Assembly (NCBI GenBank): GCA_963762565.1
Contig: CAVXLD010000001.1
Coordinates: forward strand, 106,498-170,497
Length of the DNA: 64,000 nucleotides
Source of the DNA: an uncultured Verrucomicrobiae bacterium
Lineage (GTDB): Bacteria > Verrucomicrobiota > Verrucomicrobiia > Chthoniobacterales > JAFAMB01
Direction: 5' to 3'
The notes beneath the pieces were generated by a model. The model was not told the origin of the DNA. It searched no databases and saw only the letters and a program-made list of their open reading frames with translations. Both the position numbers and the translations under genes were made by a program. Every line of letters starts with the position of its first letter. Within the stretch, counting starts at the first letter, position 1. Of this stretch, positions 7,845-63,928 are shown piece after piece.

Positions 7845-8155
7845 GTGATTCGTGATTCGTGATTAGTGATTAGTGATTGGTGATTGGTGGAGGCACTTGG
7901 TGGGGCGAGGCTCCCGAAAGAGTAAGAAGTTCTATCAGAGCTCCCGATGTTTCGCCGCTAAAGAGTTTGTTAGGCCTATTGACGCGCCGAGCCGGGGCCC
8001 AGCGATAGACCACGGCTCGGCGCCCTTAACGGCCTAGCATCGCGGGTCGGCGGGGTTAACCGCAAGGGCTTCGCTATCGCGATGGACCTTTCGGGAGCCT
8101 CGCCCCACCAATCACTTCTCACCAATCACCGATCACGTCTCGCCCTACCAATCAC
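7845..8155. repeat. Nested cassette: H' array / F1 element / H array
   Basis: gtgattcgtgattcgtgattagtgattagtgattggtgattggtgg (7845-7890) pairs with caccaatcacttctcaccaatcaccgatcac... (8107-8155), enclosing F1 copy 1. Confidence 0.85.
7899..8109. mobile_element. F1 palindromic element, copy 1 (MITE-like or structured RNA; 211 bp)
   Basis: Terminal inverted repeats ggtggggcgaggctcccgaaag / ctttcgggagcctcgccccacc. Conserved central hairpin gcgccgagccggggcccagcgatagaccacggctcggcgc (7984-8023). Confidence 0.75.
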
Positions 8156-12375: not shown

Positions 12376-13070
12376 CCCGGTTTTTACCCCAAAGGGGTAA
12401 TAGGACTCAGCCTGGGGTTTTAACCCCAGGAATGCGCCAAAAAAAAGACCCCCGCCCTGAAAGGGCGGCAGATTTTTGGAATGACAAATACATCAATATA
12501 TTATGTAATAGATACAATGTCTTAATCACTGGCACGCATCTTGATTCACCTTGTCTTTTCGACCAAGAACCGGGTCGCGTTCTTGCAATCTCAACAGCTC
12601 CGATCTGAAGTTCACGCGTATCTTACTGCGACTTTACGCGCCCTGGATTGCGAACCCGTTCAGGTCGGCGGAGTCAGCGATCACGTACATCTACTCTTTG
12701 GTCTTTCCCGAACCGTCTCGCTGGTAGATGTAGTTAAACAGCTTAAAACCAGCTCCACGAAGACGATTCGAGAGAAAGGTCATCACGCTTTCAGTTGGCA
12801 AACCGGCTACGGCGCCTTCTCAGTCAGCGAATCGAATAAAAGCGCAGTCATCGACTACATCATCAATCAAGAAATCCACCATCGTAAGATGACATTCCAA
12901 GAAGAAATCAGGGTGCTTCTAACCAAGCACAGTATGCGTTTCGATGAGCGATACGTCTGGGATTGAGACACTCTCAATCTGCCGCCCTTTCAGGGCGGGG
13001 CATTTTTGGGGCGCATTCCTGGGGTTAAAACCCCAGGCTGAGTCCTATTACCCCTTCGGGGTACAACCCC
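12376..13070 (+). mobile_element. Y1 (HUH) transposase element flanked by about 95-bp inverted REP-like repeats (RAYT-like unit)
   Basis: Left 12376-12471 and right 12979-13070 are near-identical reverse complements. Each contains the hairpins ggggttttaacccc and cccgccctgaaagggcgg. Confidence 0.8.
12517..12966 (+). pseudogene. IS200-like / REP-associated tyrosine transposase homologue with an in-frame TAA at codon 3
   Basis: Reads ATG TCT TAA then SLARILIHLVFSTKNR. HUH motif at HVHLL and catalytic-Tyr region WQTGYGAFSV. The longest intact ORF restarts at TTG 12541. Confidence 0.7.
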
Positions 13071-13135: not shown

Positions 13136-14233
13136 TCACAAATTCCCTCGTTTTGCCTGCTCGCGTTCTAACGCTTCAAACAACGCTTTGAAATTACCTG
13201 CTCCGAAACCCTGACTGCCATGACGGCGGATAACTTCATAAAACACTGTTGGCCGATCCTCAACGGGTTGGCTGAAAATCTGAAGCAGGTAACCTTCTTC
13301 ATCTCGGTCGACAAGAATGCCCCGACGCCCTAATTCGCGATAGTCTTCTTCAATCTCGCCGATCCGTGACGGTAGTTCTTCGTAGTAGGTCTCCGGCACC
13401 CGCAGAAAGTCGACTCCTGCCGCGCGTAAAGCATCAACCGTGGCAATGATATCTTTCGTCGCTAGAGCGATATGTTGCACCCCGGGCCCGCCGTAGTGAA
13501 TCAGGTATTCCTCGATCTGGCTGCGCCTTTTTCCTTCCGCTGGTTCATTAATCGGAAACTTGATGCGTCCGGAACCGTTTTGCATGACTTTGCTCATCAG
13601 GGCCGAATAGTCAGTACTGATGTCTTTATCGCTGAAGTGGGTTAGCTGGCTAAACCCAAGGACTTCACGATAGAAATCAACCCAATGATTCATCTGCCCT
13701 AATTCGACGTTCCCAACGATGTGGTCGATGGCCGCGATCCCGGTCTCTGGCGCCGGAGGCTGATTGGCGATTTCTTTAAAGCCTGGAAAGATCCCGCGAT
13801 AGTTTCGGCGCTCAATGAAACTGTGTACCGTGTCTCCATAGGTAGCGATCGAGGCTCGCACGAAGCGTCCGCTGCCGTCCTCAAATTCTTGTGGTTCTTG
13901 AACACCTTTGGCGCCTCGGCGCAAAGCCTCTTGATAAGCAGCTCGAGCATCACTAACTCTCAATGCGATATCGCGAACGCCATCGCCATGACGCGCAATG
14001 TGTCGTGATACGTCTGGCGCAGAATCCGGAGCAAGTGGTGAAGTTAAGAGAAAATGAACCTGGCCTTTTTTTAGCAACCAGGAGGCGCGATCTCGCACTC
14101 CGGTTTCCAGACCTGAGTAGGCAATTGGAACCAAGCCGAGGGCCGTGCGGTAGTAATGAGCGGCTTGCCGAGCATTTGATACGTAGAACTCGACGTAATC
14201 AATTCCGTGAAAATCGAAAGGATCTGAACTCAT
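13136..14233 (-). CDS. hppD: 4-hydroxyphenylpyruvate dioxygenase
   Basis: 365 aa. Two VOC-fold halves, the C-terminal GFGAGNFKALFEALEREQ motif, and PINEPAEGKRRSQIEEYL. Confidence 0.92.
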   Translation of the reverse strand: MSSDPFDFHGIDYVEFYVSNARQAAHYYRTALGLVPIAYSGLETGVRDRASWLLKKGQVHFLLTSPLAPDSAPDVSRHIARHGDGVRDIALRVSDARAAYQEALRRGAKGVQEPQEFEDGSGRFVRASIATYGDTVHSFIERRNYRGIFPGFKEIANQPPAPETGIAAIDHIVGNVELGQMNHWVDFYREVLGFSQLTHFSDKDISTDYSALMSKVMQNGSGRIKFPINEPAEGKRRSQIEEYLIHYGGPGVQHIALATKDIIATVDALRAAGVDFLRVPETYYEELPSRIGEIEEDYRELGRRGILVDRDEEGYLLQIFSQPVEDRPTVFYEVIRRHGSQGFGAGNFKALFEALEREQAKRGNL

Positions 14234-14339
14234 ATGGGCTTCTTCGGTTTTGAGTGACGCGTACTCCCAGACGCATCATTGGAGGTGATATTCAGGCTAT
14301 CATTAAGTAGAGAATGAAACAACGGAAAGGACGACCTTT

Positions 14340-14361
14340 GGTGGGGCGAGCCTCCGGAAAG
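14340..14361. repeat. Solo F1-type terminal repeat (left-end half site)
   Basis: ggtggggcgagcctccggaaag directly abuts F2 copy a. No matching right end is nearby. Confidence 0.6.
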
Positions 14362-14364
14362 ACC

Positions 14365-14583
14365 GGTAGGGCGAAAATCTCGGCGCGCCCAACGGAAACC
14401 ATTTTTTTTGTGACTCAATCGCGCCGGATTTGAGCCATGCGTGGGCCCTGCATCGTCCGGGACGCAATCGTTCTGTGGCGTGTCGAACCGTCGGAAGTTG
14501 CGGCTCCACGGAGCGGCTCAAATCCGGCGCGGTTAGACGTTTTAAAAAACGCATCCTGGGCGCGCCGAGATTTTCGCCCTACC
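14365..14583. mobile_element. F2 palindromic element, copy a (219 bp)
   Basis: TIRs ggtagggcgaaaatctcggcgcg / cgcgccgagattttcgccctacc, plus an inner inverted repeat cgcgccggatttgagcc...ggctcaaatccggcgcg. A second copy is at 32815-33032. Confidence 0.8.
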
Positions 14584-15187
14584 GGTCCTGGGTCGGCAAA
14601 GCGTGGGTACCCAAGATTCCGCGATCCGGAATACCATACGCCGTGCGCGACTCTGCAATGATACCAAGAGTATCTTTCGACTCGGGGACGAGACGATAAA
14701 TACGCCCTTTGGGGATAATCACATAATCACCGGGACGATAAGGCAGGATGCCGAACTCGGTCTCGAAGACACCAACCCCACGATGGAAGAAATAGAGTTC
14801 GTCGCCATCGACCGTTCGATAGAGGAACGGCATTGCCTCACGCCTCCGAGTTAAATAGAGCGAGAACGAACGCCGGGCACATGCCGCCATGGATTGCATC
14901 AACAAGGCCGGCGTTCCTTTCGGGTCCGCTAAATCCAGCGTCTCGATCGTCCGGCAATCCATAGCGATCGGCTTTAGAGAACCTTCAATCCGCTTCCAGG
15001 CCGAGGGCATCTCTTTAGCGTAAAGATGGGTGGCTTCACCAAAAAAGCCTTCGCGGCCATACTCCATTTCATAGGTCCCTTCCGGGACACCAACGTGCGC
15101 CTGATTCGGATAAACGCCGTTTTTAAGGGGGAAGCGCTGCATGCTGGCAATGTATTCCGGGGGCCGGGGAGCACAAGAGCGTGGCAC
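14579..15187 (-). pseudogene. hmgA: Homogentisate 1,2-dioxygenase, N-terminal about half only (truncated at the F2 element)
   Basis: 202 aa. NQAHVGVPEGTYEMEYGREGFFGEATHLYAKEMPSAW and the cupin segment DGDELYFFHRGVGVFETEFGILPYRPGDYVIIPKG resemble the short bacterial HGD family. It lies upstream of hppD. The ORF ends on a TAG inside the F2 terminal repeat, and no C-terminal half follows. Confidence 0.6.
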
Positions 15188-15206
15188 GCGGTAAGGGGTG
15201 GCAGCA

Positions 15207-15439
15207 CAAGTAAGCAGTAAGCAGTTTAGGAGCTAGAATCTAGGAGCAAGGAGGGCGGGGGCTTGGCAGCCGACGGTGCGGGTGGCATGCGAGTAATCAG
15301 TGATCGGTAAGTCAGTAGTCAGTGCTGAAGGCGGATCGATCACTGCTTACTGCTTACTTTGAGACTCCTGGCTATCTTTCGTCCAACGTCCGCCAGACCC
15401 CCGACCCGTTAGCTCCTAGATTCTAGCTCCTAGCTCCTC
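15207..15439. repeat. Composite cassette: V word (AAGCAGT), P arms, inner V*/V' hairpin
   Basis: V at 15207-15224, P at 15226-15253 (ttaggagctagaatctaggagcaaggag), inner hairpin at about 15306-15357 (gtaagtcagtagtcagtg ... cactgcttactgcttac), P' at 15409-15439. Confidence 0.8.
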
Positions 15440-15481
15440 TTTTTTCGAGCTTTCTGAACGATTCCGGCTATAAACCCTGGC

Positions 15482-19785: not shown

Positions 19786-20054
19786 GGTAGGGCGAGGCTC
19801 CCGAACACCAAGGGGTTTTCGCGGAGCTGGGATCGGACCAGACACCCATTATCGTTGCGACGCCTTAAATCCCGCCGAGCCGTGGTCCCAGCGCTCGCCA
19901 AACCGATGGGATCAGCTTCATTTTTCGGCCGTGCGCGGGGGGTGGCACGTTGAATATCCGCGGCTCGGCATTTCTAGCGGCCTTTGATCACGACGGGCAG
20001 CACACGTCGTGGTCCTTGGAAAAAGGTTTGGAAATGCGGGAGCCTCGCCCTACC
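19786..20054. mobile_element. F1 palindromic element, copy 2 (269 bp, enlarged centre)
   Basis: TIRs ggtagggcgaggctcccgaa / cgggagcctcgccctacc. The central ccgccgagccgtgg...ccgcggctcgg stem is retained around a roughly 58-bp larger interior. Confidence 0.7.
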
Positions 20055-32779: not shown

Positions 32780-32814
32780 GGTGAGAAGTGAGAGGTGATT
32801 AGTGGGACGTGACT

Positions 32815-33032
32815 GGTAGGGCGAAAATCTCGGCGCGGCCTACGGGAACCACCTTCCTGGCTGAACCGCGCCGGATTTGAGCCATGCGTGCGCGGTGTAT
32901 TGCCCACGACGTTATTGCTCACCGTCGGATCGAAGCCAGCGAGGTGGTCCATCCACGGCGCGGCTCAAATCCGGCGCGCACGGTCCCAGCGCAGGTGGCC
33001 CATCCTCAACGCGCCGAGATTTTCGCCCTACC
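32815..33032. mobile_element. F2 palindromic element, copy b (218 bp)
   Basis: It has the same 23-bp TIRs and inner cgcgccggatttgagcc / ggctcaaatccggcgcg repeat as copy a. Lies between ribBA and ribH. Confidence 0.8.
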
Positions 33033-33046
33033 GGAGTCTCGGCCAT

Positions 33047-33066
33047 TTCGGGAGCCTCGCCCTACC
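33047..33066. repeat. Solo F1-type terminal repeat (right-end half site)
   Basis: ttcgggagcctcgccctacc lies 14 bp after F2 copy b. This mirrors the F1 left half next to F2 copy a. Confidence 0.6.
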
Positions 33067-33114
33067 ATCCTGGCCCTTGCGGGCAATCTTGGCCGGAGTA
33101 TCGTCCCAAGCTCA

Positions 33115-46800: not shown

Positions 46801-47011
46801 GGTAGGGCGAGGCTCCCGAACCTACACAAAGGGTTAGCAAAGGCTAAACTCCGAGGCGAATCGCTGATACGCTGTACCGACAAACGCGCCGAGCCGTGGC
46901 CCAGCGATAGATCACGGCTCGGCGCGCTTCATGGCCTATGAACACCGTTCGCCAGGTGACGTACATGGCCCTTCGCGATAGCGATGGATTCTTCGGGAGC
47001 CTCGCCCCACC
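46801..47011. mobile_element. F1 palindromic element, copy 3 (211 bp)
   Basis: TIRs ggtagggcgaggctcccgaa / ttcgggagcctcgccccacc. The central hairpin at 46886-46925 is 37/40 identical to copy 1, and the length is the same as copy 1. Confidence 0.8.
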
Positions 47012-52062: not shown

Positions 52063-52352
52063 CCGCAGATTGCGCAGATTACGCAGATTTTTTTTCGGTG
52101 GGGCGAGGCCATAAACCGTGGAGCGTGCCTCGCTTGCGAAGCCGTGGTGAGCAACGCTGACGATGTGGCAGCGCATCCGCCGGCTGCGCTCTTGCGTGTG
52201 AAGTTGCAGGAGGCGGGAGATAGAGCGCTGACCGAAATAGGGCCTGCTTCAAAATGTTGCTTTGTTTACCACGGCCTCGCAAGCGAGGCGCGCTCCAAGG
52301 CTTCGCCTCGCCCTACCCGAAAAAAAATCTGCATAATCCCCGTAATCTGTGG
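52063..52352. repeat. Three-layer nested palindrome (T / F1-like / F3 words) filling the thyA-folE2 divergent region
   Basis: T at 52063-52095 pairs with 52320-52352. cggtggggcgaggc (52096-52109) pairs with cttcgcctcgccctacccg (52301-52319). F3 arms at 52116-52147 pair with 52269-52300. Core is about 120 nt. Confidence 0.9.
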
Positions 52353-62270: not shown

Positions 62271-63814
62271 ATGAGTCGCAACTTCGTTGGTGCAACCGTT
62301 CGACCAAATCGGCTTGACAGGATTGCGTGTATTTGCCAGAAGCGCTTTGTGTCTCGCTCTGTTTGGTCGAGCTCGCGGGATTGCTCTGAGTCCGGTGCGA
62401 GCGCAGGTAGGTTTTTGGCCATTCGGCTGGTCGTGAGTAGTTTTTCACGCGTTATAGTTGGGTCGTTAGCATTGTTTTCAGCTAGTTCGCCATCGGGCCT
62501 CCAGGCACAGTACAGTGATACCAAGATCGGCGAATACCTAAACTATGCATTGGGGGCTACTAACGGCAGTGTTTATGTTGGCTATAACTCGATCGGTTAT
62601 GCATCACCGGTCATTTACACGACCGCTGCCGGTTGGACCGGTCTACCGTATTCGGCCGGATTTGACCCATCATACCCCTATTATGGATATGCGAACGGGG
62701 TCAGCCGCGATGGCACGGTGGTATCAGGTTATACCTGGGGAGAAGTTTCCAACGGAGTGTATGTGCAGTACGCGGTCTATTGGGTAAACGGTACAGAACA
62801 AATAGTCCCTGCGCCGCCGGATGATGCCCAACCTAGCCTAATGGCTGCGACCGCCGTTTCGGGTGATTGGAGTACACTATTGGTCGAGGATACAACCGGC
62901 TCTAATCCATCGAAGGTCGAGACGTATGTGTACCAGATCGCAACCCAAACTTTCACTTCGGTTGGTTATTTAGGCACGGCGACTCAGCAGGCGTACGGCG
63001 CTGCGCTCAACTATGACGGTTCACAGCCGCCACGGGGTACAGCAACTTAGACAACGGTGACAACGATGGTTTCCTGTGGACCCAGAAATCGGGCCTGCAA
63101 GATCTTGGTGTCCCCCAACCGGGAACTTACTATGTTGAGCCCACATGCATGAGCGATGACGGAACGGTCATTTTCGGCCGGTACACCGTGGGCGGCGGAT
63201 GGGTTGGGTTCCGGTACACTACGTCCGGTGGATTTCAAGATACTGGAGGTATCAGTATCAGCGGATGCACGGCCGACGGAACCGAAGCCTTCGGGATTGA
63301 GAACCTCTATTTTCCTGCTATTTGGACCACAACCGTGGGTGGTGGCTATCTTGATTTTTGGCTGAAAGCGCATGGAATCAAGGCCAAACTAGGCGATCTT
63401 ATGGCACCGGTAACCATCTCGCCGGACGGTTCTCTATTAACCTCAATCGGACCGTTTGTGTATCTGAACGACCAAATCTGGTACGGAACTTATCAGATCG
63501 GGTTACCTTCTCCGCTTAACATTGCACCGCTCATCACAACTAAAGTTGTTAACTTATCGACGGCTTATGAGACGACTTTAACTGTTCCTGCGCCCGGTGT
63601 GATTCAATACGCGGAATTTACCACCGGGGCGACCGCTGGGGTTGTCGCTAAACCCAAGAACGCCGCGAGCTTTCATCTCAAAGCCAACGGTTCATTCTCC
63701 TATACGCCGAAAAATGGGTATAGAGGTAAGACCGATGATTTTACCTATCACTTAGTGGGTCCAGGCGGAACGAGTACCGCTGCGCAGGTGAAAATCTACG
63801 TCGCAGCGCCTTGA
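62271..63814 (+). pseudogene. Secreted repeat protein (HAF-family-like repeats + C-terminal Ig/cadherin-like domain), interrupted by one frameshift near 63015-63050
   Basis: Recurrent xxVSxDGTVVxG / FxW...G..DLG units (ANGVSRDGTVVSGYTW, CMSDDGTVIFGRYT, DNDGFLWTQKSGLQDLG). The second frame is open from about 63015, so the two ORFs read as one protein. The start codon is uncertain. Confidence 0.5.
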
Positions 63815-63850
63815 GCGCCGGCTGCGGAAGCTCGCCTTAGGCTCGCTTCC

Positions 63851-63928
63851 GAATAGCAAATAGCAGATAGCAAATAGCAAATTCACGCTACCCAACGCTG
63901 GGTTCGCTGACCCTTTGCTATTTGCTAT
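63851..63928. repeat. Y-word cassette (AATAGCA heptamers inverted)
   Basis: gaatagcaaatagcagatagcaaatagcaaa (63851-63881) pairs with tttgctatttgctat (63914-63928). Arm lengths are unequal. Confidence 0.8.

Follow-up and report, generated by a model that had tools for sequence, protein, structure and literature searches.

A probable hmgA pseudogene capped by a palindromic MITE beside an intact hppD in an uncultured soil Chthoniobacterales bacterium

In a 64,000-nucleotide stretch of the genome of an uncultured soil Verrucomicrobiota of the order Chthoniobacterales (contig CAVXLD010000001.1, positions 106,498 to 170,497; hereafter the window), the homogentisate 1,2-dioxygenase (HGD) gene hmgA has very probably become a pseudogene: 182 of its 387 codons survive as a 5′ remnant, 816 bp have been lost, the break is capped by a miniature inverted-repeat transposable element (MITE) of a kind we call B-type, and the neighbouring hppD, which encodes 4-hydroxyphenylpyruvate dioxygenase (HPPD), is retained. 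HPPD makes homogentisate, which in a cell without HGD builds up, leaves the cell and turns into pyomelanin by auto-oxidation; losing HGD but keeping HPPD is the classic route to the pigment, which in cultured pathogens affects survival of UV and oxidants and resistance to predation. An earlier note on the window, made from its letters alone, had described hmgA as truncated by the insertion of a repeat element upstream of an intact hppD. Most of that description holds, with one revision concerning how the truncation came about.

The truncated gene lies on the minus strand, where the open reading frame (ORF) listing and the sequence itself place an ORF (14579..15187) between hppD and the DNA upstream. 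The ATG at 15142 is likely its real start, because homologues begin MQRFPLKNG, and the same 187-aa product has been called by gene callers in other assemblies. In tblastn and blastn comparisons with full-length members and intact loci the match spans 15142 to 14597 and is always lost after ...GILGTHAL (residue 182), where intact proteins go on to read FDPGVIQYPDF...; the frame then closes on a TAG which, as the earlier note had it, falls within the 31-nt terminal inverted repeat of the B-type MITE. Residues 1-182 are 90-94.5% identical to 387-aa members of the family, and amino-acid identity to the intact allele of a strain of the same species (L218; contigs and loci used for comparison carry an L throughout) reaches 97.8%. 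In profile searches the remnant ORF matched HgmA_N (PF20510) with 29.7 bits against a cutoff of 20.2, over profile positions 126-216 of 273 only, together with a weak match to TIGR01015, and the Pfam search returned no match to HgmA_C (PF04209); full-length 387-aa relatives possess both domains. A composite query, in which the C-terminal part of the partial homologue nearest to it was added to the remnant, recovered 1893 proteins, the best 120 of which are mostly 365-400 aa long, with HgmA_N in all and HgmA_C in most, and include several 387-aa proteins from soil metagenomes. The iron ligands of HGD are a His/Glu/His set (PMC6337169), and alignment of an intact member to the Pseudomonas putida enzyme (3ZDS) sets His331, Glu337 and His367 opposite His290, Glu297 and His326 (387-aa numbering), all three of which map beyond the truncation point. 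By these alignments the ORF is a gene fragment and no functional member of its family, and the truncated product, without its Fe(II) ligands, would therefore be unable to cleave homogentisate. The earlier note was thus right that the ORF matches only the N-terminal part of HGD and that the ligand-bearing C-terminal half is missing.

Alignment of the intact relatives to canonical HGD (TIGR01015; human 1EY2, P. putida 3ZDS) covers the catalytic region and shows the His/Glu/His ligands conserved, but the family is divergent and shorter (365-400 aa), scoring 76-84 bits against a TIGR01015 cutoff of 510.75, and the window copy comprises residues 1-182 only. Genomic context suggests that this short-type family behaves as HGD in tyrosine catabolism: hmgA adjoins hppD in all Chthoniobacterales relatives, and in Grimontia hollisae genes for fumarylacetoacetase and a GST-type maleylacetoacetate isomerase come after a member of ~40% identity.

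Comparison with a near-identical intact allele indicates that the remnant is decaying. Against L218 it shows 7 nucleotide differences, 4 of them non-synonymous, and a ratio of non-synonymous to synonymous substitution rates (dN/dS, omega) of 0.41; in the same comparison omega is 0.08 in hppD and 0.06 in the permease gene. Seven intact genes agree at three positions where the remnant has derived residues (T42A, C147R and A160G), and because of these three substitutions the remnant is, on sequence grounds, taken to be decaying under relaxed constraint. It is very improbable that the 187-aa product instead functions as a stand-alone N-terminal cupin or as one half of a split HGD. Such a role would fit an ORF that is still open, an internal cupin-like duplication in HGD (residues 104-134 resemble 286-314) and an omega of 0.035-0.045 against species-level relatives, equal to that of intact genes; the last value, however, merely reflects a recent truncation and therefore shows nothing beyond that recency. 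The replacement of conserved residues relative to a near-identical intact allele speaks against function, as does the sister allele L006, which has deleted the remnant entirely. Nor is there a stand-alone family to which it could belong, since the ~200-aa database matches considered as candidates for one (P0004, P0006-P0008) are contig-end fragments or frameshifted copies and run beyond the truncation point with HGD sequence (...HALFDPGV...), in keeping with the earlier note's choice of an HGD fragment over a cupin. A C-terminal HGD half was found by tblastn nowhere in the 64-kb window; the only match, nine residues (PGVIQYxxF) at 63593 within the sequence of an unrelated surface-type protein, was rejected as due to chance.

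The anatomy of the lesion emerges from comparison with the intact allele. Relative to L218, the 816 bp at L218 3056-3871, comprising hmgA codons 183-387 and a second kind of repeat, the A-type MITE, up to its right terminal repeat, are gone, and the 234-bp B-type MITE stands in their place. Truncation by a repeat element, as the earlier note proposed, therefore stands as regards the truncation and fails as regards a plain insertion: from the aligned sequences the lesion is a MITE-capped deletion, a replacement. In the closest relatives in which the spacer between the two genes could be read (L005, L212, L213, L217, L218, L220) it holds a complete A-type MITE, with termini GGTGGGGCGAGGCTCCCGAA, followed by ~95 conserved bp and then hppD; in the window only the right repeat of that element is left, directly abutting the B-type MITE, and homology to relatives picks up again at 14330-14364. 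The remaining spacer (14234-14362, ~129 bp) consists of the conserved hppD upstream region and this residual repeat and holds no HGD-like coding, as the earlier note had reported for a distance of about 130 bp. The ancestral order would accordingly have been hmgA, A-type MITE, ~95 bp and hppD, and the lost segment would have run from codon 183 of hmgA to the inner edge of the A-type right terminal repeat. The most likely history is insertion of a B-type MITE followed by a deletion anchored at one MITE end, or else recombination between two copies.

The B-type element itself has the features of a MITE, being a short non-coding unit with terminal inverted repeats in multiple copies, two of them in the window and further ones in L006 and L229. 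A perfect 31-nt inverted repeat (14361-14391 / 14557-14587) frames it, alignment to the 32813-33034 copy and to one in L006 fixed its ends, and it folds as one long hairpin (-141.8 kcal/mol, z = -10.9). Its GGTAGGGCGAAAATCTCGGCGCG terminus recurs in at least 120 soil metagenome contigs, in 29 cases as convergent pairs spanning 203-349 bp. An Rfam search of the element gave no match. Table 1 collects the features of the locus, the repeats elsewhere in the window and the hmgA alleles of the species.

Table 1. Features of the hmgA-hppD locus and related repeats in the window (window coordinates unless a contig is named), and hmgA alleles within the species
Feature	Position or contig	Strand	Basis or remarks
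IS200/RAYT-like Y1 transposase gene (12541-12966) with ~90-nt inverted flanks, just 3′ of hppD	12379..13069	+	Pfam Y1_Tnp, NCBIfam IS200
hppD, intact, 365-aa 4-hydroxyphenylpyruvate dioxygenase	13136..14233	-	TIGR01263
Conserved hppD upstream region with GATGCGT...ACGCATC palindrome	14234..14330	-	alignment of window, L003-L006, L012
Residual right terminal repeat of A-type MITE (GGTGGGGCGAGCCTCCGGAAAG)	14337..14362	.	comparison with L005, L212, L213, L217, L218, L220
B-type MITE, 234 bp, palindromic, non-coding, termini GGTAGGGCGAAAATCTCGGCGCG, exactly at the deletion junction	14363..14596	.	inverted repeat, copy alignment
Five MITE-encoded codons (PTQDR) and TAG stop (14579-14581) of the truncated ORF	14579..14596	-	sequence read
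hmgA remnant, codons 1-182 of a 387-codon short-type HGD gene	14597..15142	-	tblastn/blastn end at 14597; HgmA_N partial
Hairpin-rich low-complexity segment, 287 bp, where relatives carry the XRE-HTH/cupin regulator gene	15186..15472	.	blastn gaps vs L003, L005, L012, L212
Regulator position compared	window 15186-15472; L005 2938-3615; L012 9091-9822; L212 2909-3523		
Second B-type MITE copy, intergenic, beside a solo A-type terminal repeat (33045-33068)	32813..33034	.	alignment
A-type MITEs, 200-260 bp, palindromic	7899-8109, 19786-20054, 46801-47011, 52097-52317		solo ends 8140, 14340, 33057, 36794
hmgA allele: intact	L218		ORF 398 aa, stop shifted into A-type repeat; all ligands present
hmgA allele: 3′ truncation (window type)	window, L007-L009, L011, L221, L229		without L218 3056-3871, B-type MITE instead
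hmgA allele: 5′ deletion	L220		without L218 2500-2953 (454 bp): start codon and ~148 codons; 3′ half kept
hmgA allele: whole-gene deletion	L219, L222, L223 (three JGI samples)		without L218 2379-3869
hmgA allele: whole-gene deletion, derived	L006		without L218 2313-3866

The junction between remnant and element recurs in at least 7 independent assemblies, on contigs of 256 kb, 275 kb and 1.5 Mb. Between 13100 and 15500, L007, L008 and L009 are base-for-base identical to the window, as is L011 from 15297, where its contig ends; these four represent three different ENA samples and one NCBI metagenome-assembled genome (MAG), and the same truncated allele occurs in a second MAG (L221) and a fourth ENA sample (L229). 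Three NCBI protein accessions (MFY9985949.1, MFZ0503861.1 and MGA7129864.1) carry exactly this 187-aa product, the longest contig being of 1.5 Mb. A chimeric join at the repeat, with an intact hmgA in the true genome, is most improbable. The B-type element is repeated in the genome, and one short-read MAG contig does break within it, just as a real repeat would cause; against a chimera, the identical junction is found on those three long contigs and in several MAGs from different samples, the remnant has accumulated derived substitutions of its own, and the derived allele L006 keeps MITE-specific bases at the junction. The misassembly that the earlier note had wished to see excluded thus does not explain a join that is the same in independent assemblies from different samples.

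Loss of hmgA has happened repeatedly in this species. Contigs with HPPD variants of 1-2 residue differences, 96-99% DNA identity to the window and a coding synonymous divergence (dS) of ~0.02 fall into the five allele types of Table 1. The L006 allele derives from the window type, because the MITE-derived GGTC and the window's GGAGGC are retained at its junction. Descent from the window allele was also considered for the L219-type deletion and ruled out, since it retains the corresponding bases of the intact allele (GTTC/GGAGCC) and so arose independently. Judged from these junctions, there are at least three independent primary inactivations of hmgA and one secondary deletion in the same species, and the gene is intact in only 1 of 12 sample or assembly records with an informative locus (a count from which L010, whose contig ends inside the MITE, was left out). 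The ends of three different deletions (window-type, L006 and L219-type) fall within 5 nt of one another (window 14337-14364, L218 3867-3872), where the right repeat of the A-type MITE has its inner edge, ~130 bp upstream of hppD. All three leave the conserved upstream region untouched; such clustering could mark either a site prone to breakage or selection that keeps the hppD control region intact.

hppD itself is, as the earlier note stated, intact: its product matches TIGR01263 with 438 bits against a cutoff of 277, over profile positions 2-353 of 353. Orthologues of the same 90% protein cluster share its 365-aa length and are 92.6-94.2% identical, and the exact protein is encoded on 9 contigs of ENA or NCBI assemblies. 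Comparison with related species gives a dN/dS of 0.03-0.05, to be set beside the 0.08 found against L218. With HPPD active and HGD lost, tyrosine catabolism would stop at homogentisate, which would be excreted and would auto-oxidise to pyomelanin. That outcome needs an expressed hppD and a genome with no other HGD, and we regard it as quite possible, falling just short of probable. The earlier note, too, had predicted a pigment only if no second hmgA exists, a reservation that was apt. Among the members listed (15 per cluster) of protein clusters P0018-P0030, no HGD paralogue from the same MAGs appears.

Several points weigh against a deletion of this history and consequence. The order of insertion and then deletion is one that we infer, and a target-site duplication cannot be seen: direct repeats are missing on either side of the hmgA copy, as expected if the deletion came after the insertion, and none is obvious at the copy at 32813-33034. 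The pigment hinges on there being no second HGD, of short or TIGR01015 type, elsewhere in the genome. In related species a regulator gene (XRE-HTH + Cupin_2) lies between a 137-aa gene and hmgA, and no homologue of it was found by tblastn in the window; it is missing from all strains of the same species, even from L218 with its intact hmgA, and regulator loss therefore preceded hmgA inactivation. Neither fahA nor maiA lies near hmgA in the window or in relatives, so that the pathway may be incomplete even in strains with hmgA intact. A search of the DNA upstream of hppD gave no convincing sigma-70 promoter. Finally, most of the contigs were found through an exact match to HPPD, and the sample is thereby biased towards intact hppD; searching by way of the adjacent 137/126-aa protein yielded no more than three contigs, each of them with hppD.

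These points bear on a plausible alternative, which we hold to be rather less than probable: neutral decay with no phenotype, in which the module became dispensable or silent after loss of its regulator, or a second HGD covers for hmgA, and no homogentisate accumulates. hmgA, sitting between deletion-prone palindromic repeats, would then simply have decayed first, with hppD not yet struck. The absence of the regulator from all strains of the species, the intact-hmgA strain included, is in line with this account, as are a locus dense with MITEs and hairpins, the retrieval bias, the lack of a promoter-like site upstream of hppD, and a 31-aa read-through in L229, where hppD differs by a single base at the stop codon (a difference that may be a long-read error). 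Neutral decay is harder to reconcile with an hppD that is intact in all 16+ contigs and shows 0-2 aa differences among strains of the species, with dN/dS of 0.04-0.15; with three different deletions that stop ~130 bp short of it and leave its conserved upstream region alone; or with the look-up through the 137/126-aa protein, which was free of the HPPD query and likewise gave only hppD-positive contigs. That hmgA loss is positively selected and polymorphic, not merely tolerated, in this soil species is suggested by the presence of at least three null alleles on MITE and hairpin breakpoints, stopping short of the hppD control region, beside a rare intact allele; we nonetheless consider it unlikely. 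If it were true, secretion of homogentisate or pyomelanin would be an ecological strategy polymorphic within a common soil lineage, serving as redox shuttle, in iron reduction or in protection against oxidants and predation, and MITE termini would be the mutational engine of hmgA loss.

Natural loss of hmgA through mobile DNA with hppD kept is already known in other bacteria. In pyomelanin-producing Acinetobacter baumannii, Tn2006 interrupts hmgA or ISAba1 has mediated its deletion, and the pigment is hmgA-dependent by complementation, since overexpression of hmgA abolishes it (PMC9431530). The window shares with that system a natural, mobile-element loss of HGD with HPPD retained; it differs in that the element is a 234-bp non-autonomous palindromic MITE, the lesion is a deletion-replacement removing 205 codons, and the host is an uncultured soil Verrucomicrobiota in which pyomelanin is only predicted. 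Natural hmgA mutants of Vibrio cholerae and V. anguillarum carry 15-bp and 10-bp deletions in VC1345 or a 410-bp internal duplication (PMC5812506, PMC6787238); pyomelanin is produced by hmgA mutants of both V. cholerae (PMC5812506) and V. anguillarum (PMC6787238), and a fitness advantage of the null state has been proposed by the authors (PMC5812506, PMC6787238). There too, recurrent independent hmgA-null alleles arise in environmental populations that keep hppD, whereas the lesions described here are large deletions bounded by MITE termini. Among Vibrionaceae, Grimontia and Enterovibrio have the same short-type HGD family at ~40% identity in an hmgA-fahA-maiA operon, in contrast to this lineage, where no fahA or maiA stands beside hmgA. 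What is added here is an allelic series within one species, and a MITE-capped deletion, in an uncultured soil member of the Chthoniobacterales. The lesion that classically leads to pyomelanin is here fixed or at high frequency in a soil verrucomicrobial lineage, and the series offers a testable case both of pyomelanin or homogentisate release as a soil trait and of small palindromic repeats driving gene loss. There is a practical consequence as well: the three GenBank proteins bearing the 187-aa fragment are named 'homogentisate 1,2-dioxygenase' with no partial or pseudogene flag, and pathway reconstructions of these MAGs would therefore wrongly score tyrosine degradation as complete.

The repeats extend well beyond the locus. 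A-type MITEs have termini GGT(A/G)GGGCGAGGCTCCCGAA and a conserved core GCGCCGAGCCGTGGCCCAGCG...CACGGCTCGGCGC, and every copy outside the hmgA-hppD spacer is intergenic; the motif GGTRGGGCGA, which covers A-type and B-type ends together, has 16 occurrences in the window where 0.23 would be expected, most of them in intergenic pairs. Both kinds resemble bacterial MITEs and REPIN-type repeats in being short, non-coding, flanked by terminal inverted repeats, present in many copies, folded into a long hairpin and mostly intergenic. They differ from those systems in that neither a target-site duplication nor a partner transposase was identified and that metagenomic copies are often centred in other palindromes. 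No transposase-bearing element with B-type termini was seen in the loci examined, though no systematic search was made, and the exact A/B MITE junction has no match in JGI metagenomes. A REPIN/RAYT link was considered and rejected, as the flanks of the RAYT/IS200-like gene 3′ of hppD show no similarity to A-type or B-type MITEs; these ~90-nt flanks match nothing else in the window. In soil metagenomes (loci L092-L208) B-type copies are often centred in another palindrome, with mutually reverse complementary flanks (L092 1704-1982, L097 2098-2362, L116 9239-9466, L179 1016-1243), a pattern suggestive of insertion at the apices of hairpins or of palindromes growing by nesting. A B-type MITE also replaces all or part of the RAYT gene region 3′ of hppD, complete in L006 (11122-11393) and half in L229 (1975-2096), so that in L229 B-type sequences lie on both sides of hppD. 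L224 has an IS481-family element at 20-1822 (402-aa rve-type transposase, triple TGTTACCTATGTCTTGGCCA end repeats), which has entered the A-type MITE of the hmgA-hppD spacer at its left terminal repeat; L224 was considered as a fourth null allele and set aside, as the element sits in that repeat and the contig ends before hmgA.

Smaller features surround these elements. One arm of the palindrome GATGCGT...ACGCATC 5′ of hppD is altered in the window to ACGCGTC. The segment that takes the place of the regulator gene contains the inverted repeats I1, I4, I5 and I7, and intergenic hairpins with low-complexity arms, such as AAGTAAGCAGTAAGCAGT / ACTGCTTACTGCTTACTT or gcaaatagca repeats, occur both there (15186-15472) and at 63840-63925; upstream of hmgA, at the corresponding position, L005 (3620-3800) and L012 (9800-9960) have hairpins of the same style but different sequence. 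The window lacks the adenosine-deaminase-like gene and the uricase cluster that relatives have nearby. On the other side of hppD, a match to the Acido-Lenti-1 RNA (Rfam RF01687) at 13018-13063 (+), with 38.3 bits against a gathering score of 37, falls in the ~90-nt inverted flank (12976-13069) of the Y1 transposase gene. This 48-nt stretch is 98% conserved relative to L004, in surrounding DNA that is ~75% identical, and because such conservation lies inside the flank of a transposase gene, the Acido-Lenti-1 'sRNA' (small RNA) motif may be the transposon's terminal hairpin array.

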